Part shown: in pieces, positions 3,329-37,802 of the stretch | Position numbering within the stretch: position 1 is the first letter of the stretch | Layout: every line of letters begins with the position of its first letter | Virus record (IMG/VR): IMGVR_UViG_3300035494_000040 | Span: 1 to 37,802 of that record | Origin: a virus | Lineage: Duplodnaviria > Caudoviricetes | Strand: one strand, 5' to 3' | Length of the DNA: 37,802 bases | Notes under the pieces: model-generated | What the model was told of the DNA's origin: nothing | The model's database searches: none | Seen by the model: the letters and a program-made list of their open reading frames with translations, nothing else | Translations under genes and position numbers: made by a program

Positions 3329-4192
3329 ATGGCTCGGATAAGAACGGTTAAACCAGAACTTTTCAGACATGAAGATTTGTTTGAAGCAGAAATAGAGACT
3401 GGGTTGCCATTGCGACTGGCTTTTATAGGCATGTTTTGTTGCTGTGATCGCGAAGGTCGTTTTGTGTGGAAGCCTCGCCAACTGAAACTCGATGTTTTGC
3501 CATGGGATAACACTGACTTTTCACGCGTGCTTGACGCGTTAATGACGCGTGGTTTTATTCGTAAGTATTCAGTTGGTGGCGTGAATTACGGTTGCATACC
3601 TTCATTTACGCGTCATCAAGTAGTTAATAACCGGGAAAAAGCGAGTGATATCCCTGAACCACCAGAATATATCGAAGAATTGCCAGCAAACACTGATTCT
3701 ATCGCATTAGATAACGATGAAGATTCACGCGTCAACCACGCGTCAACCACGCGTCACGGAAATTACTCAGTGGAAGGGGAAGGGAAGGGAAGGGAAAAGG
3801 AAGGGAATAAAGGATCTTGCGCCGAGTTAAAAAACTCGCCGCCACCACCCGAAGAAAAAACCGTGATTGTTTTGCCGCTAACGGCGAAAGACGGTGAGTA
3901 CAAAGTCCCAGAATCGGACTTTAAGAAATACATCGAGTGTTTCCCAGCGTTGGACATCATGCAAGAGCTGCGGCAGATGCTGGCATGGCTCGATGCAAAT
4001 CCCACTAACCGCAAAACACGCACTGGCATCAAGGCGTTTATCACGCGCTGGCTAAGCAAATCTCAAAACAGGGCACCTGCACAGCATAACGGCGGATCCG
4101 GTGGATACCGACCGCCAGACATTGACTGGGACGACAAGAGCTGGGCTGACGGGCTAGTTATCGAAGTTCCAACGGGAGGACCGCACTCATGA
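3329..4192 (+). CDS. Replication initiator (O analogue)
   Basis: MARIRTVKPE N-terminus typical of phage initiators; internal iterons; C-terminal FITRWL motif. Confidence 0.85.
   Translation: MARIRTVKPELFRHEDLFEAEIETGLPLRLAFIGMFCCCDREGRFVWKPRQLKLDVLPWDNTDFSRVLDALMTRGFIRKYSVGGVNYGCIPSFTRHQVVNNREKASDIPEPPEYIEELPANTDSIALDNDEDSRVNHASTTRHGNYSVEGEGKGREKEGNKGSCAELKNSPPPPEEKTVIVLPLTAKDGEYKVPESDFKKYIECFPALDIMQELRQMLAWLDANPTNRKTRTGIKAFITRWLSKSQNRAPAQHNGGSGGYRPPDIDWDDKSWADGLVIEVPTGGPHS
3521..3813. repeat. Putative origin iterons and purine tract
   Basis: ACGCGT-core repeats at 11-bp period (3522-3551; CACGCGTCAAC repeats 3726-3756), a single copy near 3608, GGGAA run 3772-3813. Confidence 0.75.
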
Positions 4193-4917: not shown

Positions 4918-5251
4918 ACGTTTACCAGATGATGCACCGACAGGGTTTGAGTTTTTGAAAGCGGCTAACAGCCAAGTTGGTGCCGCCAACGATGACGCTA
5001 CGATCGATGTTTTCCCGCTGCCGTCATACGTGGGAACAATGTCACCGCTGAAAACGATGCCGATCATGTACTTCTGCCGCGGTGGAGTATCGGACAGACA
5101 TTGGATAGCCCAGCGGATGCGTTGCATACCGGAACACTTGAAACACTTTGCTGCCGAGCAGTACGAAAGGCTTTACCAGAATGGTACTGGCCGGGAGCAG
5201 GCTAACAGATGGTTGGATGCCGTAGCGCGTAAGTATCGGGGTGGATTATGA
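4907..5251 (+). CDS. Hypothetical phage protein
   Basis: GGAGG RBS before ATG 4907; coupled to neighbours. Confidence 0.7.
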   Translation: MLAKRLPDDAPTGFEFLKAANSQVGAANDDATIDVFPLPSYVGTMSPLKTMPIMYFCRGGVSDRHWIAQRMRCIPEHLKHFAAEQYERLYQNGTGREQANRWLDAVARKYRGGL

Positions 5252-16652: not shown

Positions 16653-16677
16653 AACCCGCTTCGGCGGGTTTTTTATT
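16653..16677 (+). terminator. Rho-independent terminator
   Basis: AACCCGC-TTCG-GCGGGTT plus T run. Confidence 0.75.
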
Positions 16678-16719
16678 GCCTGCTAGGCGGGCGCAAACTA
16701 ATCCCAAGGGGATACAGCT

Positions 16720-22583: not shown

Positions 22584-22816
22584 TCCCTGAAGAGCCAGAA
22601 AGCGATCCGCTCACTGACTACATTATTGGCCTGTTCTGGCAGTTAGAAGCTGGGCGGCGGATTGTGGTTTCAGCTACAGCCGTTGTGCCTTGCCGAATAT
22701 CCATACCTGAAATCACAGGCGTTGTGGAAGTGATCGGTGAAGTTATGGCTCGGCCAGCGCTAGATAGCATCATTTTTGCAATGGACGGCGAATATATGGA
22801 GTCAATCAAGAAATGA
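22493..22816 (+). CDS. -1 frameshift extension of the chaperone (T-like; fusion 22089-22816)
   Basis: A AAA AAG at 22493-22499; the -1 frame is open to TGA 22816, which overlaps the next ATG. Confidence 0.85.
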   Translation, partial: KKAIERFNWEREWRGKSEKKAIIYRKLGSVIPEEPESDPLTDYIIGLFWQLEAGRRIVVSATAVVPCRISIPEITGVVEVIGEVMARPALDSIIFAMDGEYMESIKK

Positions 22817-23166
22817 CGGAAACGTTTAACTGGCCTGTTAATGTCGGCGCTAGCGGCGAGATAACCCACAAGATCCTCAAAAATGAGTTTGGCGATGGCT
22901 ACACCCAAGCCTTTGGACTTGGCATTAACAGCCGTTCAGCGAGCTACAACGTGTCGGTGACAGGGTTTGTGGATGGGGTAAGAGAGCCAAACATTAAGCC
23001 AATCATCGATTTTCTTGATGCCAGAAAAGGCTATGAGTCTTTTTACTGGACAGCACCAGATGGAAAAACAGGCCTGTACCGGGTAGAAAGTTACTCGCCA
23101 ACTAATGACTCGCAGAACGGCAAGACTACTGTTAGTTGGACAATGCAGGAGACATTTCAGCCATGA
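22813..23166 (+). CDS. Minor tail protein M-like
   Basis: FGDGYTQ...GIN...FLD...SFYWTAP. Confidence 0.9.
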   Translation: MTETFNWPVNVGASGEITHKILKNEFGDGYTQAFGLGINSRSASYNVSVTGFVDGVREPNIKPIIDFLDARKGYESFYWTAPDGKTGLYRVESYSPTNDSQNGKTTVSWTMQETFQP

Positions 23167-23861
23167 GCATGAAATCTGATGTTCAAAAACTTGAACCAGG
23201 AAACCTTATCCGCCTGTTTGAGTTGGACTTGAGCAACTACAGCGGCGGCATTCAGCGATTCCACGGCCACATGCAGCAAGGTGAAATCATTTGGCAGGGT
23301 GAAACCTATTCACCGGTAAACGTCGATGTTTCCGGCATGGAAATGAACGGCGGCAAGACTGTGGCACCGGTTCTCACCATCGGCAATATGATTGATGGAA
23401 CTCGCGGTGCTGTTTCTGCACTATGCCTGTACTTCAATGACTTTGTTGGGTCAAAACTCACAGTACATGAAACATTCGCGCATTACCTAGATGCTGATAA
23501 TTTCCCAGAGGGGAATCCAACAGCATCAGACAGCGAAGTTACTAGCACTTGGTACATCGAACAGAAGACCAGCGAAAATGTCCAGCAAGTGCAGTTCGAA
23601 CTTGCATCACCAGCCAGCTATGCCGATATGCTGATCCCCACTCGACAAATCACTAACCGATGTACTTGGTGCGTGCGTGGTGAGTACCGCGGCGACTCTT
23701 GCGGGTACACCGGCGGATATGTGGATAAAGACGGTAATCCAACCACAGATCCGGCATTAGATAAATGCTCTGGGCTTATCGACTCCGGGTGCAAACCTCG
23801 ATTTGGTGAAGATGCAGAATTACCGTTCGGCGGATTCCCAAGCGCAGGCCTATTGAGGTAA
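23163..23861 (+). CDS. Minor tail protein L-like
   Basis: CTWCVRGEYRGDSCGY...C...C..RFG...FGGFP. Confidence 0.93.
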   Translation: MSMKSDVQKLEPGNLIRLFELDLSNYSGGIQRFHGHMQQGEIIWQGETYSPVNVDVSGMEMNGGKTVAPVLTIGNMIDGTRGAVSALCLYFNDFVGSKLTVHETFAHYLDADNFPEGNPTASDSEVTSTWYIEQKTSENVQQVQFELASPASYADMLIPTRQITNRCTWCVRGEYRGDSCGYTGGYVDKDGNPTTDPALDKCSGLIDSGCKPRFGEDAELPFGGFPSAGLLR

Positions 23862-23866
23862 CAACC

Positions 23867-24646
23867 ATGATAAAAGTACCTGATGCCGTAATGGCGGAAA
23901 TATTCTCACATGCCGCCGAAGTAGCACTACAAGAATGCTGCGGTCTGCTGGTAAAGGTAGGGCGAAAAGTGCAGTATCGCCGCTGCCGCAATATTGCAGA
24001 TGATCCGCTGAATCACTTCCAGCTTGATACTGATGATCAATGCGCAGCAGAGGATGCCGGAAAGCTATTGGCAATCGTCCACAGCCATCCTGACGCACTG
24101 CCAAAGCCATCCATTGTTGACCGTATAGAGTGCGAAAAACACGAATTACCGTGGCTGATTGTTGGCCGAGACAATGAATTTGAATGGTTAGAACCCACTG
24201 GTTACACAGCGCCGCTACTTGGCCGCCAGTTCGTCCATGGTGTACTTGATTGCTATCAAGCAATTTCAGACTTCTACGCGCGTGAATTAGGCATTTTACT
24301 CGGGCACTATGAGCGCAATGACCGCTGGTGGGAGAACAAAGACGGGCCAAGCCTGTATCTGGACAACTTCGAGAAAGAGGGGTTTGCCCGTGTGGATTCA
24401 CCGCGCCGTGGCGACATCCTCATTATGCGCATCAAAACACCTGGCTTGCCGTGCTATCACCCAAATCATGCCGGGGTGTTCCTTGGCGATAACCCGCTAT
24501 TCAAGAGCGAAGCGGCAACCGCACTATGTGGTGCTGGCCCGTTCTTCTATCACCACCTTTATGGCCGCTTGGCTACCCGCGAAATATACGGACACAGCTG
24601 GGCCACGCGCACTGAGCTAGTTCTGCGCCACGAATCAATGATTTGA
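23867..24646 (+). CDS. Tail assembly protein K-like (JAB + NlpC/P60)
   Basis: ECCG, HSHPD, DCY, NHAG motifs. Confidence 0.93.
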   Translation: MIKVPDAVMAEIFSHAAEVALQECCGLLVKVGRKVQYRRCRNIADDPLNHFQLDTDDQCAAEDAGKLLAIVHSHPDALPKPSIVDRIECEKHELPWLIVGRDNEFEWLEPTGYTAPLLGRQFVHGVLDCYQAISDFYARELGILLGHYERNDRWWENKDGPSLYLDNFEKEGFARVDSPRRGDILIMRIKTPGLPCYHPNHAGVFLGDNPLFKSEAATALCGAGPFFYHHLYGRLATREIYGHSWATRTELVLRHESMI

Positions 24647-24653
24647 GGTAATT

Positions 24654-25238
24654 ATGGGATTACGTACTGTGCGCCTGTACGGCGTTTTGGGCACTAAGTT
24701 TGGCCGCGAATGGAAACTAGACTGCAAGTCACCGGCGGATGCCGTGCAGGCGCTTTGCCACATGGTGCCTGGTTTTGAAAAGTTCATGCGCGAAGCAGAG
24801 CAGTGCGGACTTGTATTTTCAGTGTTCAGCGGAAAGCGAAATCTGTCAGAGGAAGAGCTGATATTCCGTGGCACTGAACATGAAGCTATCCGCATTGCAC
24901 CAATAATCAAGGGCAGTAAACAAGGCGGGCTATTTCAGACGATCCTTGGTGTCGCATTAGTTGGCATTGGTTTTTTTGCGTTTGGTACAACATCGGCCCT
25001 TGGGCTTGGACTAATTGCTGCTGGTGCCGGAATTGGGCTTGGTGGAATAGTTCAAATGCTCTCGCCAATGCCTGAATCAGCAGGAGTTGGGGAACAGGAT
25101 GGAAATAACCCTAGCACCGGTTTCGGCGGTCCGGTAACGACCACATCTATGGGACACCCTGTGCCATTGCTATACGGTGAATTTATGGTAGGTGGTGCTG
25201 TTCTTTCTGCCGGAAACTACACCGAAGACAAATCCTAA
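24654..25238 (+). CDS. Tail assembly protein I-like
   Basis: VRLYGVLGTKFGR...PVPLLYGE. Confidence 0.92.
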   Translation: MGLRTVRLYGVLGTKFGREWKLDCKSPADAVQALCHMVPGFEKFMREAEQCGLVFSVFSGKRNLSEEELIFRGTEHEAIRIAPIIKGSKQGGLFQTILGVALVGIGFFAFGTTSALGLGLIAAGAGIGLGGIVQMLSPMPESAGVGEQDGNNPSTGFGGPVTTTSMGHPVPLLYGEFMVGGAVLSAGNYTEDKS

Positions 25239-25254
25239 TTATCATCAATATCGT

Positions 25255-25279
25255 AACCGCCATAAGGCGGTTTTTTATT
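25255..25279 (+). terminator. Rho-independent terminator
   Basis: AACCGCC-ATAA-GGCGGTT plus T run. Confidence 0.7.
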
Positions 25280-25316
25280 ACCTGAAATCTGCCACATTCC
25301 GTGAGGAACCACATTA

Positions 25317-28300
25317 ATGGCCTATGAATCAAGACTGTCGATCACTATCGATAGCCGCACTGCTGAGCAGAAAGCTCAGGATCTGCAGTCAGCATTACAG
25401 CTACTTGAAAACGCTGGAATACGCCTAACTAATACCAACCAAAAGGTATCAAGCACCAGCAAAGCCGCTGGCTCCGCTATGGGTGAGGCAGGTAATCAGG
25501 CAAATAAAGGTACATCAGGCGTTAATAGGTTAAACAAATCATTGCGCGACACCGATACTGGCGCAGCACAATTAGCTGCCACCATTCGCCGCAGTCTGAT
25601 TGGTGCCTTTGCTGGCATCAGCACCATCAATGTATACAAGTCTGTTACTGATAATCTAAAAGCTTATCAGGACATGCGTACCCGCCTTACACAACTTGTC
25701 GGAACAAGTCAGCAATACCAGAAAGAAGAAGAATACCTGATTCAGCTTTCTAAGGATCACCATAAAGAGTTGATCCCGCTTGCCGATAGCTATGTCCGCC
25801 TTATCGCGCTGCAAAAACAAGGCATCATTACCACAGAAGAAGCCCGCAAGATAACCGAAGGGTTCAGCAACGCACAGAGCGCGTTGGGGATCACCACTGA
25901 ACAACAGGGATTTATCCTTTACGGTTTGTCGCAGGCTCTGTCACAGGGCACAGTACAGGCTCAGGAACTTAACCAAGTAATTGAGCCAATGCCAGGATTA
26001 TTGGATGCTTTAGGCCGCGCGGCTGGATTTACTGGCAAAGGTGTTGGTGTCCAGTTCCGCAACATGGTTAAGGAAGGCAAGGTAACAAGTGACTTTCTGA
26101 AAGATACCTTGATCAAGGCATTGCAGGACTATAACGGAGCTGCCGCTGCAACTGCTGACAACTTATCTGCCAAATACCGCGACCTTTCAAACTCATATCA
26201 GTTATTGGTTGTTGCATTTGAAAAGCCAATTGCTAGCACGTTAACACCAATCCTTGATTCAATAACACAAGCTACTAATTACTTTTCTGGTGAGGCATCA
26301 ACGCTTTCAGATGGGCTGCAAACAATTGGCAAGATAGCCGGAGGCGCTGCCGCCGCTGGCGTTGCCTTCTACGGTACAAAGCTGGCTTATGCCACTCAAG
26401 CAGCCATCACTCATCAGCTTGCCATCGCTAACGAAACCAGAACGCTATTACTTGAGGCTCAGGCTGAACAACGCGCTGCCGAAGCTATTCAAATGTCGGC
26501 CAAGCAAGAGTTGGCAAGGGCCAACGCTGCCGTAGCCAGTGCTGAAGCTAAGGTGATGGCAGATAAAGAGGCTCAGGCTTCTGAAATTGCCAGAATGCGC
26601 ACCACTCAGCAGCTAATGACGGTTGAGAATGCGCTAGAAGTACAGCGCATGAAGTCGCAAATTAGCGATATTGGCAGACAGCAAGCCACCGCACGTATGG
26701 CTGAAATTCGCCTTGCAGAAGTTGCGCTTACCAAGAAGATAGAAGCGGCTGAACGAAGCCTTGCCGCCACAACCACGGCAACAAGCGTAGCAGTTCAGGC
26801 GGCATACGCGCAAAGAACAGCCGCTGTTGAGGCTTATGGTATAGCGACAGCTACAGTTAACCGTGCCGTTGTCCAGACTGAAAAGGCTGTTGCTGCTGCC
26901 AGCCTACTTTCTCGCGCAACAACAGCATTGACTGGATTCTTAACTGGCCCAGTAGGATTGGCAATATCTGTAGGACTGGTTGCTGCATCATTTATTGATT
27001 TCTCTGATAAATCAAAAACAGCTAAGGAAGCAGCTAAAGAACTTTCAGAAAAAGTTGATTCTCTTACGGAATCTTTCTCTGGACTAAATGAAGTTCAGAG
27101 ACAGGTGCAGGTTGCCAAGTTTAATTCACAGATGGCGACCATTCGCGAGCAGATTAACAATAATAATGACGCAATAATCCAACTTAATGAGTTGGTAAAG
27201 TCAACATTTAATGAATCGACAAGATTTGGTCTTATTAACCAGATTGATCAGCTAAAGAAAAAAAATGATGAACTTGAAAAGCAGCTAAACGAAATATCAC
27301 TTAAACAACAGGCTGTGTTTAAATCTGGTTTACCAGATATAAAAAACACAACGGCAGCAACCGATGAAGCCGCTAAGTCCACAGAAAAATTGGACAAATC
27401 ATCAGAAAAGTTGCTCCAGTCTCTACGCGATGAATATGCTGAGGTAACGCTAGGGAAAGAGGCACTAAAGCAATACAACGCCGAGAAAGTTATAGCCCAG
27501 ATAGAATCATCAAAACTTGAAGGCGGGCTGAAGTCAGAAGCATTATTGCTGGTTGAGGAAATTCAGAAACGCAAGGATGCCAAAAAGGCACTTGAGGAAC
27601 AGCGACAGGCGGCCCAAGAATATGCAGCGATTCAGCAAAAGCTAGCAGTATTCCAAGAGCAGCAGAATCTATCAATCACTGGTATGGGCCGTGGTGATAA
27701 GTGGCGGAAGCAGCAAGAGCAGGAATTGCAGGTAAGGCAGCAATCAGCTAATGCTATATTGGCGTTAGAACAGGCTCAACAAGTCGAATCTACACGCATT
27801 AGTGACGCCGCTTACAAACAACGTCTTACTAATATTCAGTATCAAGAAAGTCAGCAGATAGAAGCTATACGCAATGCGGCAATGCAAAAGGCTGCAGCAG
27901 AGCAAAACTGGATGACGGGATCAATGGAGGCTCTGCAGAACTATGCCGATGCCGCAGCCAATACTTACCAGAACGTTCAGGATGCCACCGCTAATGTACT
28001 GAGTGAAACCACATCAACGATCAGCAGCAGCCTATATGACTTAGCGACAGGTGCAGAAACACTAGGCGGATCCCTACAAAATATGGTGAAAGGCTTTGCC
28101 TCTTCCATGCTGCAAGCTTTGACTGATTTAGCTGCGCAGTGGCTGGTGTATCAAACTGTTCAGATGTTGGTAGGTAGTACAACTCAGGCGCTTGCAGGTT
28201 CACAAATGTTTTCCAATGCGATTGCTGCGCAACAGATGGCGGCTTTGAACGCATACGCTTCAACAGCAGCTATTCCGTTAATTGGTCCTGCCGCTGCACC

Positions 28301-28685
28301 AGCCGCAGCAGGTTTAGCAATTGCAGAAACTACGCCATTTGTTACTACTATTGCATCCTCTGCTTTTGCTGGGTTGTTCGACAGCGGTGGTAATATTCCA
28401 TCAAACAAATGGGGTATTGTTGGCGAGTACGGTCCTGAAATTGTGTCAGGTGCCAATGTTACCAGTAGGCAGACAACTGCTGATATTTTGAAGCAGGCGG
28501 GCAGTTCAAGCGGAAGCCCAGTAAACGTTTATGTATCAGTAAATCCACAAACAGGCCAGACGGAAGTTACCGGGGATCAAACATCTCAGTACAAACAGCT
28601 AGGTGTGATGATTGGCAACGCTGTACGCAAGATCATTATCGAGGAACAGCGGCCAATGGGATTACTGGATTCAAGAAAGCGTTAA
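25317..28685 (+). CDS. Tail tape measure protein
   Basis: 1122 aa Ala/Gln-rich helical protein; LSQALSQGTVQAQELNQ; FDSGG...GIVGEYGPE C-terminus. Confidence 0.93.
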   Translation: MAYESRLSITIDSRTAEQKAQDLQSALQLLENAGIRLTNTNQKVSSTSKAAGSAMGEAGNQANKGTSGVNRLNKSLRDTDTGAAQLAATIRRSLIGAFAGISTINVYKSVTDNLKAYQDMRTRLTQLVGTSQQYQKEEEYLIQLSKDHHKELIPLADSYVRLIALQKQGIITTEEARKITEGFSNAQSALGITTEQQGFILYGLSQALSQGTVQAQELNQVIEPMPGLLDALGRAAGFTGKGVGVQFRNMVKEGKVTSDFLKDTLIKALQDYNGAAAATADNLSAKYRDLSNSYQLLVVAFEKPIASTLTPILDSITQATNYFSGEASTLSDGLQTIGKIAGGAAAAGVAFYGTKLAYATQAAITHQLAIANETRTLLLEAQAEQRAAEAIQMSAKQELARANAAVASAEAKVMADKEAQASEIARMRTTQQLMTVENALEVQRMKSQISDIGRQQATARMAEIRLAEVALTKKIEAAERSLAATTTATSVAVQAAYAQRTAAVEAYGIATATVNRAVVQTEKAVAAASLLSRATTALTGFLTGPVGLAISVGLVAASFIDFSDKSKTAKEAAKELSEKVDSLTESFSGLNEVQRQVQVAKFNSQMATIREQINNNNDAIIQLNELVKSTFNESTRFGLINQIDQLKKKNDELEKQLNEISLKQQAVFKSGLPDIKNTTAATDEAAKSTEKLDKSSEKLLQSLRDEYAEVTLGKEALKQYNAEKVIAQIESSKLEGGLKSEALLLVEEIQKRKDAKKALEEQRQAAQEYAAIQQKLAVFQEQQNLSITGMGRGDKWRKQQEQELQVRQQSANAILALEQAQQVESTRISDAAYKQRLTNIQYQESQQIEAIRNAAMQKAAAEQNWMTGSMEALQNYADAAANTYQNVQDATANVLSETTSTISSSLYDLATGAETLGGSLQNMVKGFASSMLQALTDLAAQWLVYQTVQMLVGSTTQALAGSQMFSNAIAAQQMAALNAYASTAAIPLIGPAAAPAAAGLAIAETTPFVTTIASSAFAGLFDSGGNIPSNKWGIVGEYGPEIVSGANVTSRQTTADILKQAGSSSGSPVNVYVSVNPQTGQTEVTGDQTSQYKQLGVMIGNAVRKIIIEEQRPMGLLDSRKR

Positions 28686-29860: not shown

Positions 29861-30010
29861 ATGGTTGTAAAAAAAGCAAAATCACCTTTTCCGCTAAGAG
29901 CACCAGATGAATTGATGGATATCATCAAGCGTAAAAGTGCTGAAAGTGAGCGCTCTGTTAATGCAGAGATCATCTTCCAATTGAAGAAGCTATATCGGGA
30001 AGCAGCATGA
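29861..30010 (+). CDS. arc: Arc-like repressor (49 aa, missing from ORF track)
   Basis: MVVKKAKSPFPLRAPDELMDIIKRKSAESERSVNAEIIFQLKKLYREAA; GGAGG RBS. Confidence 0.88.
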   Translation: MVVKKAKSPFPLRAPDELMDIIKRKSAESERSVNAEIIFQLKKLYREAA

Positions 30011-30019
30011 TCGCCATAA

Positions 30020-30087
30020 ACAGCGAAGCCCCAACTGCGGGAACAGTCAGGGCTTCAATATCAACAAATCTAAGCGGAGTCATTGAC
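30020..30087 (-). ncRNA. sar: sar-like antisense RNA to ant (ends approximate)
   Basis: GAAGCCCCAACTGCGGGAACAGTCAGGGCTTC hairpin resembling P22 sar as recalled; minus-strand TATACT within the first ant codons. Confidence 0.7.
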
Positions 30088-30939
30088 ATGACTAGTATAG
30101 CAACTCTTGAAGCAGTTAACACTACCGTAGTGCCATTTAACGGTCAGCAGGTAATCACTGCAATGAATGATGGTATGGCCTATGTTGGTATGAAGGCTAT
30201 TGTTGAGAATCTTGGAATGAGTTGGTCAACTCAGCAATCCAAGTTAATGAAAAGTAGTGATAAATTCAACTGTGTTCATATGAACATGGTTGCTGCTGAC
30301 AGCAAAATTCGAGAAGTTTTATGCATCCCACTGCGAAAACTGAACGGCTGGTTGTTCAGCATCAATCCGGCGAAGGTGAGGGCTGATATTCGTGATCGCC
30401 TGATCACCTATCAGGAAGAATGTTTTACCGTACTTTACAACTACTGGTCGAATGCCAGTAAACCAAAGCAGCGCCAGTGCAATACCAAACAGTTGGCACC
30501 GCTACGGCAAAAAGTTGAGGCATTAATCGGAACGGGTGTTGGCAACATTTATCCGGATATCTGGAAGTTGATCCACAAACGTTTCGACATCGATACCATC
30601 AACCAGTTAGCTCCGGAACAAGTTCCAGAGGCGATAAGTTATCTTGATGCGTTGGAAGGCGAGTTGTTGCCAAGACAGGATAATGAGGTGTTTACCATCA
30701 ACCGTGAACAGGCAATGTCTATTTGTCACTTGCTGTGCCATGTTTATTGGGTAGAACAGCGTTGGCAGAACGGTATTGGTGCAGGGTTGAAAGAGATGGG
30801 CAGCCCGTTGTATGGGCAGACGCATGAGCACGTCATTCACATGGCGAGATTTGGCAGGATATTGGACCGTGAGCTTGCGCCTATGCTTAAGCAATTCGAG
30901 CATTTAAGCGGTGAGCGATTGCAGTTGTTGCAATCTTGA
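30088..30939 (+). CDS. ant: P22 Ant-like antirepressor
   Basis: MTSIATLEAVNTTVVPFNGQ...LNGWLFSINPAKVRADIRD...YQEECF; GGAG RBS before 30088. Confidence 0.92.
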   Translation: MTSIATLEAVNTTVVPFNGQQVITAMNDGMAYVGMKAIVENLGMSWSTQQSKLMKSSDKFNCVHMNMVAADSKIREVLCIPLRKLNGWLFSINPAKVRADIRDRLITYQEECFTVLYNYWSNASKPKQRQCNTKQLAPLRQKVEALIGTGVGNIYPDIWKLIHKRFDIDTINQLAPEQVPEAISYLDALEGELLPRQDNEVFTINREQAMSICHLLCHVYWVEQRWQNGIGAGLKEMGSPLYGQTHEHVIHMARFGRILDRELAPMLKQFEHLSGERLQLLQS

Positions 30940-30990
30940 CCCAACAGTGATTAAATTTTCCCAGAGTGGAAGAAAAGTAGTAGTACCCTG

Positions 30991-31052
30991 AAAACCGTCC
31001 TTTGTGGCGGTTTTTGCGTTTTTGGCCTCGGCATTTTATCGGGGCTTTTTTG
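30991..31052 (+). terminator. Tandem terminators after ant
   Basis: Two GC hairpins each followed by T runs. Confidence 0.65.
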
Positions 31053-31183
31053 TTTCTGAAATTCACCGCGCCTTAGCACGCGCAAACCACCAAGAGCCTA
31101 CAGACAATGAGCCTGAGAGATCCCGTTATCTCTTGGGGCGGTATCTCTGTGCTAACAGGCTCATTCTCTATAGGAGCTTTACT

Positions 31184-31726
31184 ATGGAACACCACGAATT
31201 GGATATGACTATTGACCTGCGTTGTCTGGTCACTGCGGCTAATGGCATGCCTTCAACTGACACGATGCAAATTGCCAAAGCGTTTGGTAAGCGTCATCAA
31301 CACGTAGTTCGTGCATTAGAAAATCTGCAATGTTCCGAAGAGTTCTCGAAGGCCCACTTTTGGGCTGTCGAGAAAATCAATGACTTAGGCATCTTTGACA
31401 AGAAGCAAAAATACTATCGAATGGATTTTAGCGGTTTTGTTATGGTGGTGATGGGGTTTAATGGTGCCAAGGCCGCAGCAATCAAAGAAGCCTATATCAA
31501 CGCCTTTAACTGGATGACGGAAGAGTTGCATAAACTCAGCCGCAACTACGAAGCTGAACGCAACGCCGTAATGCTGGAATACATGAAAGAAAGTGATGTT
31601 GCCAGTATGTCAGGCCGCTTGCTTAACCGCTGGGGAAGGGTGAAGAAGCCATCGCTTTTAGCGCGAATAGAAATGTTAGAGCAAGAAGGGCAGTTCACAC
31701 TGCCGTTTTTCAAAATAGCAAGTTAG
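31184..31726 (+). CDS. Rha-family regulatory protein
   Basis: IAKAFGKRHQHVVRAL...GFVMVVMGFNGAKAAAIKEAYINAFN; AGGAG RBS. Confidence 0.9.
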   Translation: MEHHELDMTIDLRCLVTAANGMPSTDTMQIAKAFGKRHQHVVRALENLQCSEEFSKAHFWAVEKINDLGIFDKKQKYYRMDFSGFVMVVMGFNGAKAAAIKEAYINAFNWMTEELHKLSRNYEAERNAVMLEYMKESDVASMSGRLLNRWGRVKKPSLLARIEMLEQEGQFTLPFFKIAS

Positions 31727-31783: not shown

Positions 31784-34700
31784 ATGATGCAGCAATCTGC
31801 GCAGCCAATAAAAGGCGCTAAATCTGGTGGTTCTGGTTCACAGACGCCATATACTGCACCAGACACGCTGCGTTCTGTCGCCACTGCAAAACTGCTGTAT
31901 GCCATCAGTGAAGGCGAGATAGAAGGGCTGGTAAATGGCTATAACTCGGTGTACCTGGATGGAACACCTGTTAAAAACTCCGATGACAGCTCCAATATCG
32001 AAGGCGTTACCGTTGATTTTCGCGCCGGGACTGTTGACCAAAGCTATATCCAAGGCTTCCCGGAAACCAACAATGAAATATCTGTAGGGGTAGAACTACG
32101 CTACGGTACTCCTTGGGTACGCCAGTTCACTAATCCACAGTTATCGGCGGTACGGTTACGTTTTGCGTGGCCTTCTTTGCTGACTCAGAAGGACAATGGT
32201 GATCGTGTTGGATACCGTATTACCTATGCCATAGATGTTTCCACCGATGGCGGCAGTTACACCACTGTACTTACCACAGCCGTAGACGGAAAGACAGAAT
32301 CTGAGTACGAGCGCAGCCACCGCATTGATTTACCGCAGCAAGGTTCAAGCTGGCAGATCCGCGTTAGACGATTGACTGAAAATGCCGATTCTGTAACGAC
32401 TGGCGACACTATGAATGTGGTGTCGTACACGGAAGTTGTTGATGCCAAGTTACGCTATCCGCACACTGCATTACTGGCCGTTCAATACAACTCTGAGCAG
32501 TTTTCTAGCGTTCCGAAATTCGCGGCACTGTGCCGGGGACGCATTATCCAAGTGCCGACCAACTACGATCCTGAGTTGCGCACGTACGCCACCTCTGGCG
32601 CAGGAACCACTAACGGCGTATGGGATGGCACATTTAAGCTGGCATACACCAATAACCCGGCATGGGTTTGGTATGACTTAATCCTGCATAAACGTTATGG
32701 TCTCGGCAATCGCATCAATGCCAATATGGTGAATAAATGGAAGCTGTACCAGATCGCCCAATACTGCGATGTGATGGTCGATGACGGTAAAGGCGGTACC
32801 GAGCCACGCTATACCTGCAACGTCTACATACAGACGCAATCACAGGCTTACAAACTGCTCAATGAGATCACCAGCATTTTCCACGGCAGTAGTTACTGGG
32901 ATGGCAGTCAGATGGTAGTCAATGCCGACATGCCAGAAGACCCGATTTACAACTATACCAATGCCAACGTTATTAATGGGATTTTCGAGTACAAAGGGAC
33001 AGCTTTACGTGATCGACATAGCGTGGCCACTGCCAAGTGGAGTAACCCAGATTTAAACTACGAAGACGATACCGCCGTTGTTTTTGATGATTCAGCAGTA
33101 ACACTAGGGATATCACAGCTTGATGTTGACGTTGTCGGATGTACGTCAGAAGGTCAGGCGCAACGGGCTGGATTATGGGCGCTTAAGTCTGAGCAGTTAG
33201 AAACCCGTACAGTGACATTCGCTGTCGGATTAGATGGGCAGATACCGCGCCCATTCAACATCATCAATATTGCTGACCAGATGTTGCAGGGCGCAATGAA
33301 TGGTGGACGCATCAAAACTGCTAATGCTTCAGTTATTCAGCTTGACCGTATCTCGGATGCATCCGTTGGCGATCGCCTGATTGTCAACCTGCCATCAGGC
33401 AAGGCTGAGTCACGCAATATCACCGACATTGACGGCTATCATGTCACTGTTTCGCCAGATTACTCCGAGGTGCCTCAAGCGCAATCTGTGTGGGTAGTTG
33501 ACTCTGATAATTTGGCTGTGATGCAGTTTCGCGTACTTTCAATCAAGCGGTCTGAAGAACAACAGTACGAGATAAACGGCGTTATCAGTGTGCCTGGCAA
33601 GCATGCTGCCATCGACAGCGGCGCAAAAATCGATGTTAAGCCAATATCAGTAATCCCGGCAAAAATCCAAGATCCGCCAACAAATGTCACTATCGGCCAG
33701 AGAACGTTAGTCGAACAGACGCTATCTGTAACGGTAATGACAATCCAATGGGATGCTGCAGATGGGGCTGTGGCTTATGATGTGGAGTGGCGTAAGGACA
33801 ATAGCGACTGGATAAAAGTGCCGAGAACTGGCACCAGAAGTGTTGAAGTGCGTGGGGTTTATATCGGGCAATATCTGGCCAGAGTTACCGCGATAAATGC
33901 TGCTGATATTTCATCTAAATATGCCACATCAGCACTTACAGATATCACCGGCAAAACCGGAGCCCCGCCGGCACTCGCCAGCCTTACCACATCATCAATC
34001 GTCTTTGGCATCGATTTAAACTGGAGCTTTCCGGCAGGAGCAGAGGACACGCTTTACACCGAAATTTACTATGCAACCAATGGCAACGGAGATAATGAAA
34101 CACTGCTCGGTCAATATGCCTATCCACTGGATAACCATACGCTGAATGGGTTAGCTGCCGGCGTAAGTTTTTGGTTTAAGGCGCGCATTGTAGACAGAAC
34201 AGGAAATATCGGTCCATGGACTGATTATGTGCAAGGTTCATCATCGTCAGATGCCGGAGCCATTCTCGATTATCTAACCGGTAAAATCACCGAGAGCGAA
34301 CTTGCTCAAGACTTGCTGCAACCCATTCAGAGCATTCCAACGCTCACGGCCAACATCGATTCAATCAATCAGCAGTTGGCAGAGATAACAGGCGCTGGCG
34401 CATGGGTAAATACCACTGTTTATGATAGTGGTGATTACGTCACTTATGACGATGGCACAGGCGTTTCGCTGTACCGAGCTAAACAAGATGCCATCCCCGC
34501 CGGAACGCTACCCACTAATACCACTTATTGGGAGTACGTTGGCGACTATGCCAGCATCGGAGAAGCGGTCGCCGCGCTTACGGCATCAGTCACTGACATT
34601 GAAAATTCCATTGATGTACTCGATGGACAACTCACTGCCAACGTTCGCCGCACAGACACGATGATCAGCGCCTATCGTGATGATGATAACGGCGAAGGCC

Positions 34701-35875
34701 GTCTAGCTGACGTGTTAGCGGGCTGGAAAGCAAAAGCTGCTATTAAGCTTGAGCAGAAGACTCGTGCTTCTGAAATCGAAGCGGAGGCACAGCAGCGGCT
34801 AAATCTAACAGCTACAGTTAATAGTAATTATTCGGATATTACTCAACAGTTAACAGTGCTGAGTAATGACCAGCAGTCAACAGCACAATCTCTAGAGCAA
34901 GTTGTCTCAACTGTCGGCGACAACACCGCTGCTGTGCAGCAAGTGTCACAAGCACAAGCAGATCTAGAAGGCAACGTATCAGCGATGTGGAAAGTCAGCA
35001 TGAACGTAACTGCTGATGGGAAATATTACGCGGCCGGGTTTGGAGTTGGTTTTGATAATGGAGATCAGGGATTACAGTCAGCATTTTATGTACTGGCTAA
35101 TAAGTTTGCCATATTAAATCAGGTTACAGGTACCAGTGCTGTAACATTGCCTTTTGCAGTTCAAAACGGCCAGGTACTGATAAATAATGCTGTGATCGGA
35201 ACGCTGCAAAATAAAACAATTATCCAGCGTGTAGGCACATCAATGCAGGTATTTGGCATTGGATTTGGGAGTTCAGGGCAATTCATTGAGTGGTTTGGTC
35301 CTGATGTTGGCGATCCGAGTAACTGCACAGAAGCGAATGCTACATCTTATAAAAAAACCAACGGTGATCAGTTTACCGGCGGTTCATTTAGGAGCGGAGT
35401 GCTGCAGAACGGTTATCAAAATACTGGAATTAGCGCATATACAGTTGGCGATTACCCAGTATCATTCGGCCCATTCGGCACAAATGGCCGCAGCAAAACA
35501 GTATTGCTATCCATCAGTGCAGTAGCACCTACAGTGCAGTTTGGTACGCATCTAGACGGTTGGTCACCTGGTACGCTTCCAACACCTGTTTTTGGGTGGG
35601 CAATAGAGAGAAAGATCGGGTCTGGCTCATGGACGCAAATAGCTGCCGGAACGATCACTGGGTCAACAGTAGTTCATCAGGATGAAATACCTGATACTAA
35701 TCAATACAATTACTACTCAACATCATCGATTGATGGATCGTATACATACACAGATAACTCTGTATCTATGGACAACTTTAATTACAGAGTTAGAGTTACT
35801 GCATGGACAAGTGTTTATTCAGGATCAAATCCGACAGCGCGTCAAAGTATTGGGCTAACATCTATTGAGTCTTAA
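31784..35875 (+). CDS. Central tail tip / host specificity protein J-like
   Basis: SEGEIEGLV, WDGTFKLAYTNNPAW, GCTSEGQAQRAG, FNIII-like segments, DUF1983-like region. Confidence 0.95.
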   Translation: MMQQSAQPIKGAKSGGSGSQTPYTAPDTLRSVATAKLLYAISEGEIEGLVNGYNSVYLDGTPVKNSDDSSNIEGVTVDFRAGTVDQSYIQGFPETNNEISVGVELRYGTPWVRQFTNPQLSAVRLRFAWPSLLTQKDNGDRVGYRITYAIDVSTDGGSYTTVLTTAVDGKTESEYERSHRIDLPQQGSSWQIRVRRLTENADSVTTGDTMNVVSYTEVVDAKLRYPHTALLAVQYNSEQFSSVPKFAALCRGRIIQVPTNYDPELRTYATSGAGTTNGVWDGTFKLAYTNNPAWVWYDLILHKRYGLGNRINANMVNKWKLYQIAQYCDVMVDDGKGGTEPRYTCNVYIQTQSQAYKLLNEITSIFHGSSYWDGSQMVVNADMPEDPIYNYTNANVINGIFEYKGTALRDRHSVATAKWSNPDLNYEDDTAVVFDDSAVTLGISQLDVDVVGCTSEGQAQRAGLWALKSEQLETRTVTFAVGLDGQIPRPFNIINIADQMLQGAMNGGRIKTANASVIQLDRISDASVGDRLIVNLPSGKAESRNITDIDGYHVTVSPDYSEVPQAQSVWVVDSDNLAVMQFRVLSIKRSEEQQYEINGVISVPGKHAAIDSGAKIDVKPISVIPAKIQDPPTNVTIGQRTLVEQTLSVTVMTIQWDAADGAVAYDVEWRKDNSDWIKVPRTGTRSVEVRGVYIGQYLARVTAINAADISSKYATSALTDITGKTGAPPALASLTTSSIVFGIDLNWSFPAGAEDTLYTEIYYATNGNGDNETLLGQYAYPLDNHTLNGLAAGVSFWFKARIVDRTGNIGPWTDYVQGSSSSDAGAILDYLTGKITESELAQDLLQPIQSIPTLTANIDSINQQLAEITGAGAWVNTTVYDSGDYVTYDDGTGVSLYRAKQDAIPAGTLPTNTTYWEYVGDYASIGEAVAALTASVTDIENSIDVLDGQLTANVRRTDTMISAYRDDDNGEGRLADVLAGWKAKAAIKLEQKTRASEIEAEAQQRLNLTATVNSNYSDITQQLTVLSNDQQSTAQSLEQVVSTVGDNTAAVQQVSQAQADLEGNVSAMWKVSMNVTADGKYYAAGFGVGFDNGDQGLQSAFYVLANKFAILNQVTGTSAVTLPFAVQNGQVLINNAVIGTLQNKTIIQRVGTSMQVFGIGFGSSGQFIEWFGPDVGDPSNCTEANATSYKKTNGDQFTGGSFRSGVLQNGYQNTGISAYTVGDYPVSFGPFGTNGRSKTVLLSISAVAPTVQFGTHLDGWSPGTLPTPVFGWAIERKIGSGSWTQIAAGTITGSTVVHQDEIPDTNQYNYYSTSSIDGSYTYTDNSVSMDNFNYRVRVTAWTSVYSGSNPTARQSIGLTSIES

Positions 35876-36165
35876 TGACTCTTTAATGACCAATATTTAT
35901 CACAAATTATTTTACCAGTTGATTTATATTTTCTGCACTTTTTAAAAACGGTGTCACCAACATTCACAATGACAGTTTTATTAACTGATCCTTTTTTTGA
36001 TGCTTCAGCAAATGATGTGATGATACGGCATTCGTCACCTTGGACAATACACTGACTTTTATCAGTAATTGTCATTTCCTTTATAAATGTAACAGGTTTT
36101 TCACTGCTTATTGCACTGAAAGAAAAACCAATAAGTAAAGCTGCAAATAATTTTGATTTTTTCAT
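35872..36165 (-). CDS. Small exported accessory protein
   Basis: Signal peptide, four Cys, AGGAG RBS, very AT-rich. Confidence 0.75.
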   Translation of the reverse strand: MKKSKLFAALLIGFSFSAISSEKPVTFIKEMTITDKSQCIVQGDECRIITSFAEASKKGSVNKTVIVNVGDTVFKKCRKYKSTGKIICDKYWSLKSH

Positions 36166-36282: not shown

Positions 36283-37653
36283 ATGGCATGGTACAGAACA
36301 GGCACAGTAACCGTCACTAACGGCCAGACTGCTGTTACAGGAAGCGGAACGGCATGGGTGGAAAACAGCCGGGTAGGTGATGCATTCGTTGGTCCTGATG
36401 GGCTGACCTATGAGATAACGAATATTGCCAGTGATTCGGCACTATCAATTTATCCGGGTTACAAAAGCAATTCTCAGTCAGGCCAAGGGTACTCTATCAT
36501 TCCTGTCCAAGGTTATACCAAGAAATTGGCAGACCAGGCATCCGAACTGATAAATGACTATGATGACGCGCTGAATACACTTGAGACTGACTATAACCAG
36601 AACGTCAGCAACTTAACGATTATCGCAACGGATGGCTATCGAAAGTCGATCGAGCAAAATTCAGGGGGTAGAAATACTGTCGTATATGATGCACAGGGAA
36701 ATCCAAATATCATGTGTGTGATACCAAGGTTCAACGTTGAAGATCTCGGCCTGACGGCATTAAATCTTGGCACCGGAACGCATCCTGCATTCATCACAAA
36801 TGGGGCACCTCGTGGCGAAATCCTTGTCGGCAAATATCTGGCGTCATCGGCGGCTGGCGGCACTGCTGTTATCGGCGGCCCTCAGCCGCGAACCTCGGTT
36901 AACTACGACCAGGCCAAGCAGCTTTGCACCCAGAAGGGCAGTAACTGGCACCTTATGTCGATCCACGAATGGGCCGCTATTGCACTATGGTCTCTGGCTA
37001 ATGGCACTGTGCCTCGCGGCAACACAAACTATGGCCGCAGCCATGAGGCGAAGTGGGAAACCGCTCGCCGCGCCGATAATGGATTGCCTGGAGATACCAG
37101 TGGCACAGGTCGAACAGACACAGGCAAGGGCCCAGCAACGTGGAATCACGATCATACTGAGTTCGGTGTATGTGATCTGGTCGGAAACGTCTGGGAATGG
37201 ATTGACCAGATGAAATTGGATGACGGCCAAATCCTGACAACGCTGGATAACAACCCATCATTAACAGAGGCTGGATGGAATCGTCACACAGCGTATTACG
37301 ATTCAACTTCAACTACCGGCGGCTCACCTATCCTCAATTCAACAGTGACAAATCGCATGGGTAATGTCGGTGACGACGCAAGCTCTGGATATAGCAACTC
37401 TGTCGAATTCAAGCTTCTGCAAAAATCTGCTGGTTATACTCCTGTTGAACTGCTCAGACAGCTGCTGCTAGAGACTGCATCAGCCCAGACTGTTGGAGGG
37501 TTTCTATACACTAGAAACTATGGTGACCGATTCCCGCTTCGCGGGGGCAGCTGGAGCAATGGCTCGAGCGCCGGGTTGGGCGCGCTCATTCTGGGCGATG
37601 CGCGGTCGCTCTCGGCCAGTTACGTCGGTTTTCGCCCCGCTTTCTTTGTGTAA
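36283..37653 (+). CDS. Tail fibre/receptor-binding protein with C-terminal CLec (FGE-like) domain; DGR target
   Basis: MAWYRTGTVTVTNG anchor; HLMSIHEWAA, DLVGNVWEW, RGGSW...GFRPAF. Confidence 0.9.
   Translation: MAWYRTGTVTVTNGQTAVTGSGTAWVENSRVGDAFVGPDGLTYEITNIASDSALSIYPGYKSNSQSGQGYSIIPVQGYTKKLADQASELINDYDDALNTLETDYNQNVSNLTIIATDGYRKSIEQNSGGRNTVVYDAQGNPNIMCVIPRFNVEDLGLTALNLGTGTHPAFITNGAPRGEILVGKYLASSAAGGTAVIGGPQPRTSVNYDQAKQLCTQKGSNWHLMSIHEWAAIALWSLANGTVPRGNTNYGRSHEAKWETARRADNGLPGDTSGTGRTDTGKGPATWNHDHTEFGVCDLVGNVWEWIDQMKLDDGQILTTLDNNPSLTEAGWNRHTAYYDSTSTTGGSPILNSTVTNRMGNVGDDASSGYSNSVEFKLLQKSAGYTPVELLRQLLLETASAQTVGGFLYTRNYGDRFPLRGGSWSNGSSAGLGALILGDARSLSASYVGFRPAFFV
37528..37653 (+). repeat. DGR variable repeat (VR) and start of IMH region
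   Basis: Last 40 sense codons are GC-rich with only 9 A, none at third positions; partner TR not in window. Confidence 0.8.
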
Positions 37654-37674
37654 CTGTTAACTGATTCTTTGGAT

Positions 37675-37692
37675 GGCGCACGGTAGTGCGCC
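37675..37692 (+). other. DGR target-recognition hairpin
   Basis: GGCGCAC-GGTA-GTGCGCC, 7-bp stem with GRNA loop, no U-tract typical of a terminator. Confidence 0.8.
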
Positions 37693-37713
37693 CTTTAGTT
37701 GTGCGGAGGCAAG

Positions 37714-37802
37714 TTGACAACGCTAATCATTGAAGAAAAATGCCGAGAAATGATGATGTACGGCTATCAAGCAATAAAGCAGTTTCCAAAACATGAGCGC
37801 CA
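37714..37802 (+). CDS. avd: Avd-like accessory variability determinant, truncated by window edge
   Basis: GGAGG RBS, TTG start, MTTLIIEEKCREMMMYGYQAIKQFPKHER; L.I..K...Y......FPK.ER pattern of Avd four-helix proteins. Confidence 0.8.
   Translation, partial: MTTLIIEEKCREMMMYGYQAIKQFPKHER

Follow-up and report, generated by a model that had tools for sequence, protein, structure and literature searches.

The window analysed here is an entire viral contig of 37,802 nt, and its last full gene (36283-37653, +) encodes the predicted target of a diversity-generating retroelement (DGR). The 456-aa product was assigned by Pfam, PHROG, phmmer and Foldseek as a predicted side fibre with a C-terminal CLec (FGE-type) domain; it contains GNVWEW, RGGSW and GFRPAFFV and matches FGE-sulfatase (PF03781) above the cut-off (E 1.7e-7). 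The initial annotation had described a CLec/FGE-type fibre end depleted in A, then a GGTA-loop hairpin and an ORF taken for the start of avd, and all of these features were recovered. There are only 10 A in the 118 nt at 37528-37645, and the most A-poor 118-mer anywhere on the + strand begins at 37531, with 9 A (window mean 33, sd 5.6). We placed the variable repeat (VR) at 37525-37641 (+), with changes within 37525-37624. When it was compared with the ancestral-type template (TR) of a sister locus, L002, 14/117 positions differed and all 14, the boundary base 37525 among them, were TR adenines (P about 1e-11); this boundary base is G in all 11 close VRs. The spectrum of changes was G9 T3 C2. 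As judged from these alignments, the cassette is a VHML-type DGR, with adenine-specific rewriting visible in the last 40 codons of the predicted tail side fibre.

The IMH (37625-37653, +) consists of a GC-rich 3' end common to the TR up to 37641, after which the TR departs, and of a VR-specific tail that runs to the stop codon. This region showed 0 differences to the related loci L001-L003, versus 14-18 in the preceding 100 nt. A DNA hairpin with a 7-bp GC-rich stem and a GGTA (GRNA-type) loop was found at 37675-37692 (+), 33 nt past the end of VR/TR homology. It fits the rule given in the Fig. 5 legend of PMC3240598 (7-10 bp stem, GRNA loop, 4-34 bp distance), a source that already lists the VHML hairpin and a Shewanella one. 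The 81-nt stretch around it gave a z of -2.6, with 2/200 shuffles as good, and the 18-mer itself is identical in VHML, VP58.5 and the close loci. Next comes the 5' part of avd (37714-37802, +), which has a TTG start preceded by GGAGG at 37705-37709 and is cut by the contig end after 29 codons. This 29-aa fragment matched bAvd (PF22296) at E 3e-4, below the cut-off, and the PHROG family 'Avd protein of DGR' at E 6e-9. The stretch 37654-37802 is 100% identical to L002, whose full Avd scores E 6e-31 against bAvd.

Inside the window no TR-like repeat was detected, the best A-tolerant match (87/123) being at background level. TR and RT had been predicted to lie just beyond the contig, where a search for the complete Avd, a near-copy of the VR and an RT was advised; the remainder of avd, the TR and the RT were all found in a separate 9,619-nt record, G001 (locus L032), which surfaced in our RT scan. 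The two parts of avd overlap exactly, and are followed by the TR and, next to it, an intact 425-codon RT frame with YMDD (RVT_1, E 1e-19). The proposal of a DGR acting on a tail fibre of a lambda-like siphophage is thereby borne out: the window supplies the target, VR, IMH, hairpin and the beginning of avd, and G001 the rest. By homology, the element would be expected to drive tropism switching. L002 and L003 likewise continue with full avd, TR and RT. The RT frame begins at an ATG on the avd stop and reads through the TR (L002:7455-8732) in 13/15 loci tested; the exceptions are the VHML record, in which the frame breaks ~45 codons after the TR, and L024, which has a separate RT. We considered the TR as an extension of the RT to be a new trait and rejected this, as the ACA phage cassette has been described in print with its TR translated as an N-terminal extension of the RT (PMC10612066). 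In L003 the spacer right after the TR (L003:7582-7701) gave a sub-threshold match to the Rfam RT-14 RNA (37.4 bits, gathering 48.1, E 0.079).

G001 overlaps exactly with the last 48 nt and the first 63 nt of the window, and together the two would close into a 47,310-bp circle. The 63-nt overlap is unique to this pair among the contigs compared, whereas the 48-nt overlap is common to other contigs with close cassettes. Both records have a G+C content of 47.5%. Pfam matches in the window (cI, CII, replication P, lysis, terminase, capsid, tube, M, L, K, I, tape measure, J) are those of a lambda-like siphophage. After avd, TR and RT, G001 encodes a small conserved ORF, a xis-integrase fusion, Dam, RecT (E 6.5e-37) and a RecE-like nuclease. 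Given the fusion, which arose by a deletion of ~810 nt relative to G002 (L106:6902-7357), the G001 lineage is probably unable to integrate; by visual inspection, a tRNA-like att core is situated between the fusion and the tail end. A Shewanella is the likely host, the nearest named proteins coming from Shewanella algae (93%).

Several other features of the genome were observed. The tail genes at 22813-28685 run in the order M, L, K, I, with the tape measure gene last; lambda has it ahead of M. Between the tape measure gene and J are antirepressor and Rha genes (30007-31726) as well as four ORFs on the reverse strand. Short repeats resembling origin iterons are found within the replication gene (3501-3756), and two identical 28-nt terminator-like hairpins (930-957 and 16653-16680), separated by 15.7 kb, point in opposite directions. 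L001-L004 gave no tRNA in an ARAGORN search. In a run search the window stretch was absent from RNA runs; runs with small word shares were left out as habitat evidence.

The target protein joins a PyoF13-like N-terminus to a TaqVP-like CLec domain. Residues 1-96 (36283-36570, +) form an attachment module homologous to the OB/stem of the F2-pyocin side fibre PyoF13 (phmmer to 25VE, E 2e-22); PyoF13 itself terminates in an R-pyocin-like binding domain and lacks a DGR. The CLec domain (aa 115-455; 36625-37647, +) has as its nearest solved relative TaqVP (5VF4; phmmer E 2e-61, Foldseek E 2e-22), a single-domain monomer described as a CLec-fold DGR variable protein (PMC6328139). TaqVP is thus matched by both sequence and fold, with the Foldseek match resting on an AlphaFold model of modest confidence (mean pLDDT 61) that is low in the VR part itself (<50). 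By tblastn the N-terminal module was found in L001-L003 only, and by DNA it was present in 2/2 J-tipped loci tested and missing from 6 others with the same cassette.

Upstream lies a lambda-J-type central tail fibre of 1363 aa (31784-35875, +) with Pfam GpJ domains, whose best PDB match is the F2-pyocin central fibre (E 8e-301). The F2-pyocin side fibre has been described as docking on a glycine kink in the helical shaft of its J-type central fibre (PMC13455828). The kink residue of the pyocin, Gly955, aligns with Gly970 of the window's J (counted from the alignment), and the window holds both an OB/stem module at the target N-terminus and a J-type shaft with the glycine kink. J is likely to be the docking shaft for the DGR target, and the target probably functions as a side fibre next to J. 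If the F2 pyocin structure is a guide, the target would dock as a trimer on the helical J shaft and serve as the first, variable receptor binder, with J staying fixed. Between the two genes we observed an A+T-rich 97-aa ORF (35872-36165, -) with a signal-peptide-like start; it gave no match in Pfam or PHROG and resembles an accessory gene insertion.

Searching with the CLec part yielded 19 loci from viruses and 6 from genomes. L001-L003, in which J lies upstream, show 92% identity over the last 1.5 kb; six close copies of the cassette lack the window's target N-terminus and have sheath or baseplate genes as neighbours. RT DNA of the window lineage is 97-99% identical to 9/10 close copies tested and 94% identical to VHML. 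Annotated versions of the cassette exist in VHML, VP58.5 and ACA2. As to the suggestion that this instance might be undescribed, the cassette is a near copy of the VHML/VP58.5 DGR and, by an RT DNA identity of 94-99% to these and other close copies, is not new as such; no description of the phage was found. VHML (NC_004456) and VP58.5 (NC_027981), Vibrio phages of the genus Vhmlvirus, have the same order target-VR-IMH-hairpin-avd-TR-RT-small ORF and an identical hairpin, with DNA identities of 98.7% in the hairpin/avd start and of 93.8% (VHML) and 99.0% (VP58.5) in the RT. Their TR is one base from that of L002. They differ from the window in being contractile-tailed with a different target N-terminus; in the window, an F2-pyocin-like attachment module goes with a J tail of the lambda type.

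The DGR of Pseudoalteromonas phages ACA1/ACA2 belongs to the same family (target 59% identical in aa), but in a P2-like phage and with an intact TR. The DGR of Bordetella phage BPP-1 (mtd, avd, TR, brt) is described with the same parts, order, GRNA-loop hairpin, adenine-only rule and CLec target (PMC3240598, PMC5758913). In contrast to BPP-1, the TR of the present cassette sits within the RT reading frame. Six other loci (L006, L010, L018, L021, L022, L023) keep the target with no avd, TR or RT behind it, and three of these (L006, L010, L022) carry two target copies with different VRs.

The TR of G001 has TR flanks on both sides, yet it is VR-like. VHML and VP58.5 TRs keep 25 adenines; in G001 16/25 are changed and 9 are left. 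Within the 100-nt mutable span all differences to the L002 TR, 16/16, fall at A (P about 2e-12), with a spectrum (G7 T6 C3) like that of the window VR. No AAY codon is left, and the theoretical protein diversity, counted as codon outcomes, falls from about 9e12 for the ancestral TR to about 2e4 (1.6e4). The window VR has 16 mismatches to this TR, of which 5 are at adenines of the G001 TR and 15/16 at ancestral adenines, so that the adenine rule does not hold for the pair; the 11 non-A-to-N differences equal the maximum given in PMC5758913. The shared flanks place the branch between the alleles from the first TR adenine (L002 7467) to the last mutable one (7566); upstream, the avd 3' DNA of G001 differs from L002 at 1/324 positions. 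On this basis the cassette is classed as a DGR with a departed TR allele and not as a canonical one, and ongoing diversification in the G001 sub-lineage would be much reduced.

Both TR alleles were found in the runs. In run X2 two contigs cover L002 7437-7596, one with 18 differences (depth 27) and one with 2 (depth 7.9); we identified these alleles from difference counts and boundaries. G001 predicts 18 differences over this stretch, and 24 and 19 over the X1 and X2 RT contigs, as observed. The X1 RT contig ends in a 12-nt loose end equal to the G001 sequence at that place. X1 matches the window with 0 differences over the pieces listed, and its mutated TR end is the sole RT-linked one among those listed; X1, the window and G001 may all derive from a single sample. 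Run X3 has a near-ancestral TR, with 3 differences over 518 nt. Its VR carries 14 changes from the window VR, all at TR adenines among the positions listed (n=11), and such a VR/TR pair suggests past DGR activity in the lineage. We ruled out that the X3 VR was copied from the eroded TR, as it lacks the bases at 37589 and 37624 that this TR would give. Depth, a poor measure, was 9-11, 21-32 and 6-10 for the window lineage in X1, X2 and X3, and 7, 23 and 5.5-8 for the RT contigs.

We consider it probable that one mutagenised cDNA recombined back into the TR locus, and that the eroded TR is linked to the window's genome. By analogy with BPP-1, Avd and RT would make cDNA from TR RNA, introducing errors at adenines, and this copy would replace the VR under the guidance of IMH and hairpin. 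The window VR has A where the eroded TR has other bases, which argues that it was written from the ancestral TR; a later cDNA carrying TR flanks would then have annealed at the TR locus itself. The eroded TR would still be copied, but its reach would drop from about 9e12 protein variants to about 2e4. Among possible helpers in this overwrite the phage's own RecT is the likeliest, although we put its involvement at slightly below even odds. In engineered DGRs a RecT-type protein is reported to make the TR overwrite itself at rates like those of the target (10.1101/2025.03.24.644984), and a TR combined with RecT to be stripped of adenines (10.64898/2026.07.21.739853). DGRec and related systems thus resemble the proposed event in TR self-overwriting and adenine loss; as described, they are synthetic, with RecT overexpressed and mismatch repair suppressed, whereas here the phage is natural and a role of RecT is only proposed. 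RecT would not be sufficient, given that in G003 a RecE- and RecT-like pair occurs together with a TR changed by a single A>G.

A DNA-level route, in which the TR was converted by recombination from a mutated VR (an earlier or unsampled allele), aided by RecET and with no cDNA at the TR locus, appears unlikely. Conversion would be favoured by the 87-90% identity of VR and TR, by their spacing of about 550 nt and by the presence of the RecE-like and RecT genes; it would also suit L070, whose TR and VR share the same non-A codons, and L003, whose single A>G is also in its VR. The first changed base of the eroded TR speaks against it: this is A>C, with G in the window and in 10 close VRs, and homology ends there, VR and TR being unalike upstream. 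A cDNA with TR flanks can carry this A>C and a VR donor not easily, which favours the cDNA overwrite, although the argument leans on one base. Moreover, the VRs compared (n=11) all stand at least 15 positions away from the eroded TR (range 15-20/100).

It is also quite improbable that the window's genome has the ancestral TR and is an ordinary intact DGR, the eroded allele belonging to a sibling lineage or an assembly chimera. A near-ancestral TR does occur in X3 and, as the minor allele, in X2, and the window VR cannot be copied from the eroded TR. Its link to the eroded TR rests on the unique 63-nt end and on contig depths, not on a single molecule. This reading is opposed by X1, where the RT-linked TR end listed is the mutated one, and by the occurrence of the eroded allele in an IMG/VR record as well as in unitigs of two runs; since only 18 nt separate the last TR change from TR-specific sequence, 31-mers leave no room for a graph chimera. 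Stepwise loss of TR adenines by point mutation and selection in a stable environment is predicted by theory (10.64898/2026.02.18.706561) and would suit the outright deletion of the cassette in a co-occurring phage, but it is very improbable in view of 16 changes, all at A, between two alleles with shared flanks, of an avd 3' DNA that is almost unchanged upstream, and of the lack of an intermediate among the contigs listed.

The deletion was seen in 4/4 L002-mapped runs (X1, X2, X3, X6), in which a high-depth contig skips 1,342 nt (L002 7268-8609) comprising the avd 3' half, the TR and most of the RT. Its junction is carried by a complete 37.5-kb record with a baseplate-J homologue (L004:7200-7469, G004). 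This phage shares the target end, IMH, hairpin and avd start with the window, and its depth is roughly 10 to 20 times the window's in X1-X3. We infer that the shared stretch acted as an assembler repeat, which would be why the window contig broke. With its hairpin intact, the L004 phage could be a target in trans during co-infection. Derivation of the eroded TR from the VR of this abundant phage was ruled out by 20/100 differences.

We then surveyed 101 non-duplicate loci, 90 with an RT match and 48 with a motif-defined TR site; 42 RT loci with no motif match were left unscored. L004 was dropped (a VR beside a deleted RT), leaving 47 sites, 32 of them distinct. AAY codons numbered 0 in two sites (L032, that is G001, and L074), 5 in one (L070) and 7-11 in 44. 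With 44/47 sites keeping 7-11 AAY codons, apparent TR erosion is rare. The TR of L074 (L074:539-649), a distant DGR, has 17 differences to that of its sister L073, 16 of them at A. L070 (about 5007-5107) has a partly eroded TR and its genome, G007, encodes RecT; the L005 TR has 3 A>G changes. TR pattern scans returned 2 metagenome and 6 viral matches and only one new contig, L111 (intact TR, VR identical to that of L008), so the frequency of erosion in the close clade rests on about 11 TRs. A Pfam search for RecT in 5 records, three of them short fragments, gave 1 match, G007, and missed the RecT-like gene of G003 seen by tblastn; from this 5-record search no association between RecT and TR erosion can be claimed.

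The TR is described as unaltered in DGRs, including that of BPP-1 (PMC10907252), and its loss has been modelled through point mutation at the spontaneous rate (10.64898/2026.02.18.706561). The survey PMC5758913 reports non-A-to-N differences in 86/372 DGRs, at most 11; the available portion of its text does not name TR overwriting, and term look-ups in the available portions of PMC8144416, PMC12875486 and 10.1101/2024.11.15.621889 found no self-overwritten TR. Our literature searches, with supplements outside their scope, found no natural self-overwritten TR in print and no description of this phage. The DGR family is known; what is new is a mutagenised template caught beside its ancestral allele. 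Three states are present in the population: an intact TR, a putatively self-overwritten TR and, in a co-occurring phage, a deleted cassette. It is conceivable, though we hold the idea only tentatively, that temperate phages equipped with a DGR plus a RecT-type recombinase burn out their TR periodically, the cDNA pasting over it and freezing the fibre tip, as a built-in DGR life cycle.

The cassette is evidently modular, being 97-99% identical in RT DNA on contractile- and lambda-tailed phages while the N-terminal 100 residues of the target are swapped. Overwriting of the TR would breach a one-way rule, as DGR templates are taken to be invariant and models let the TR change at the spontaneous rate only. 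If it is true, burnt-out DGRs would fail the adenine-only filter of DGR finders, and A-to-N filters would miss such spent elements; some of the 'non-A-to-N' cases in surveys could be of this kind. With both TR alleles, an intact RT and a phage RecT in one natural population, it becomes testable what protects the TR in nature and whether phage recombinases contribute to integrating the cDNA.
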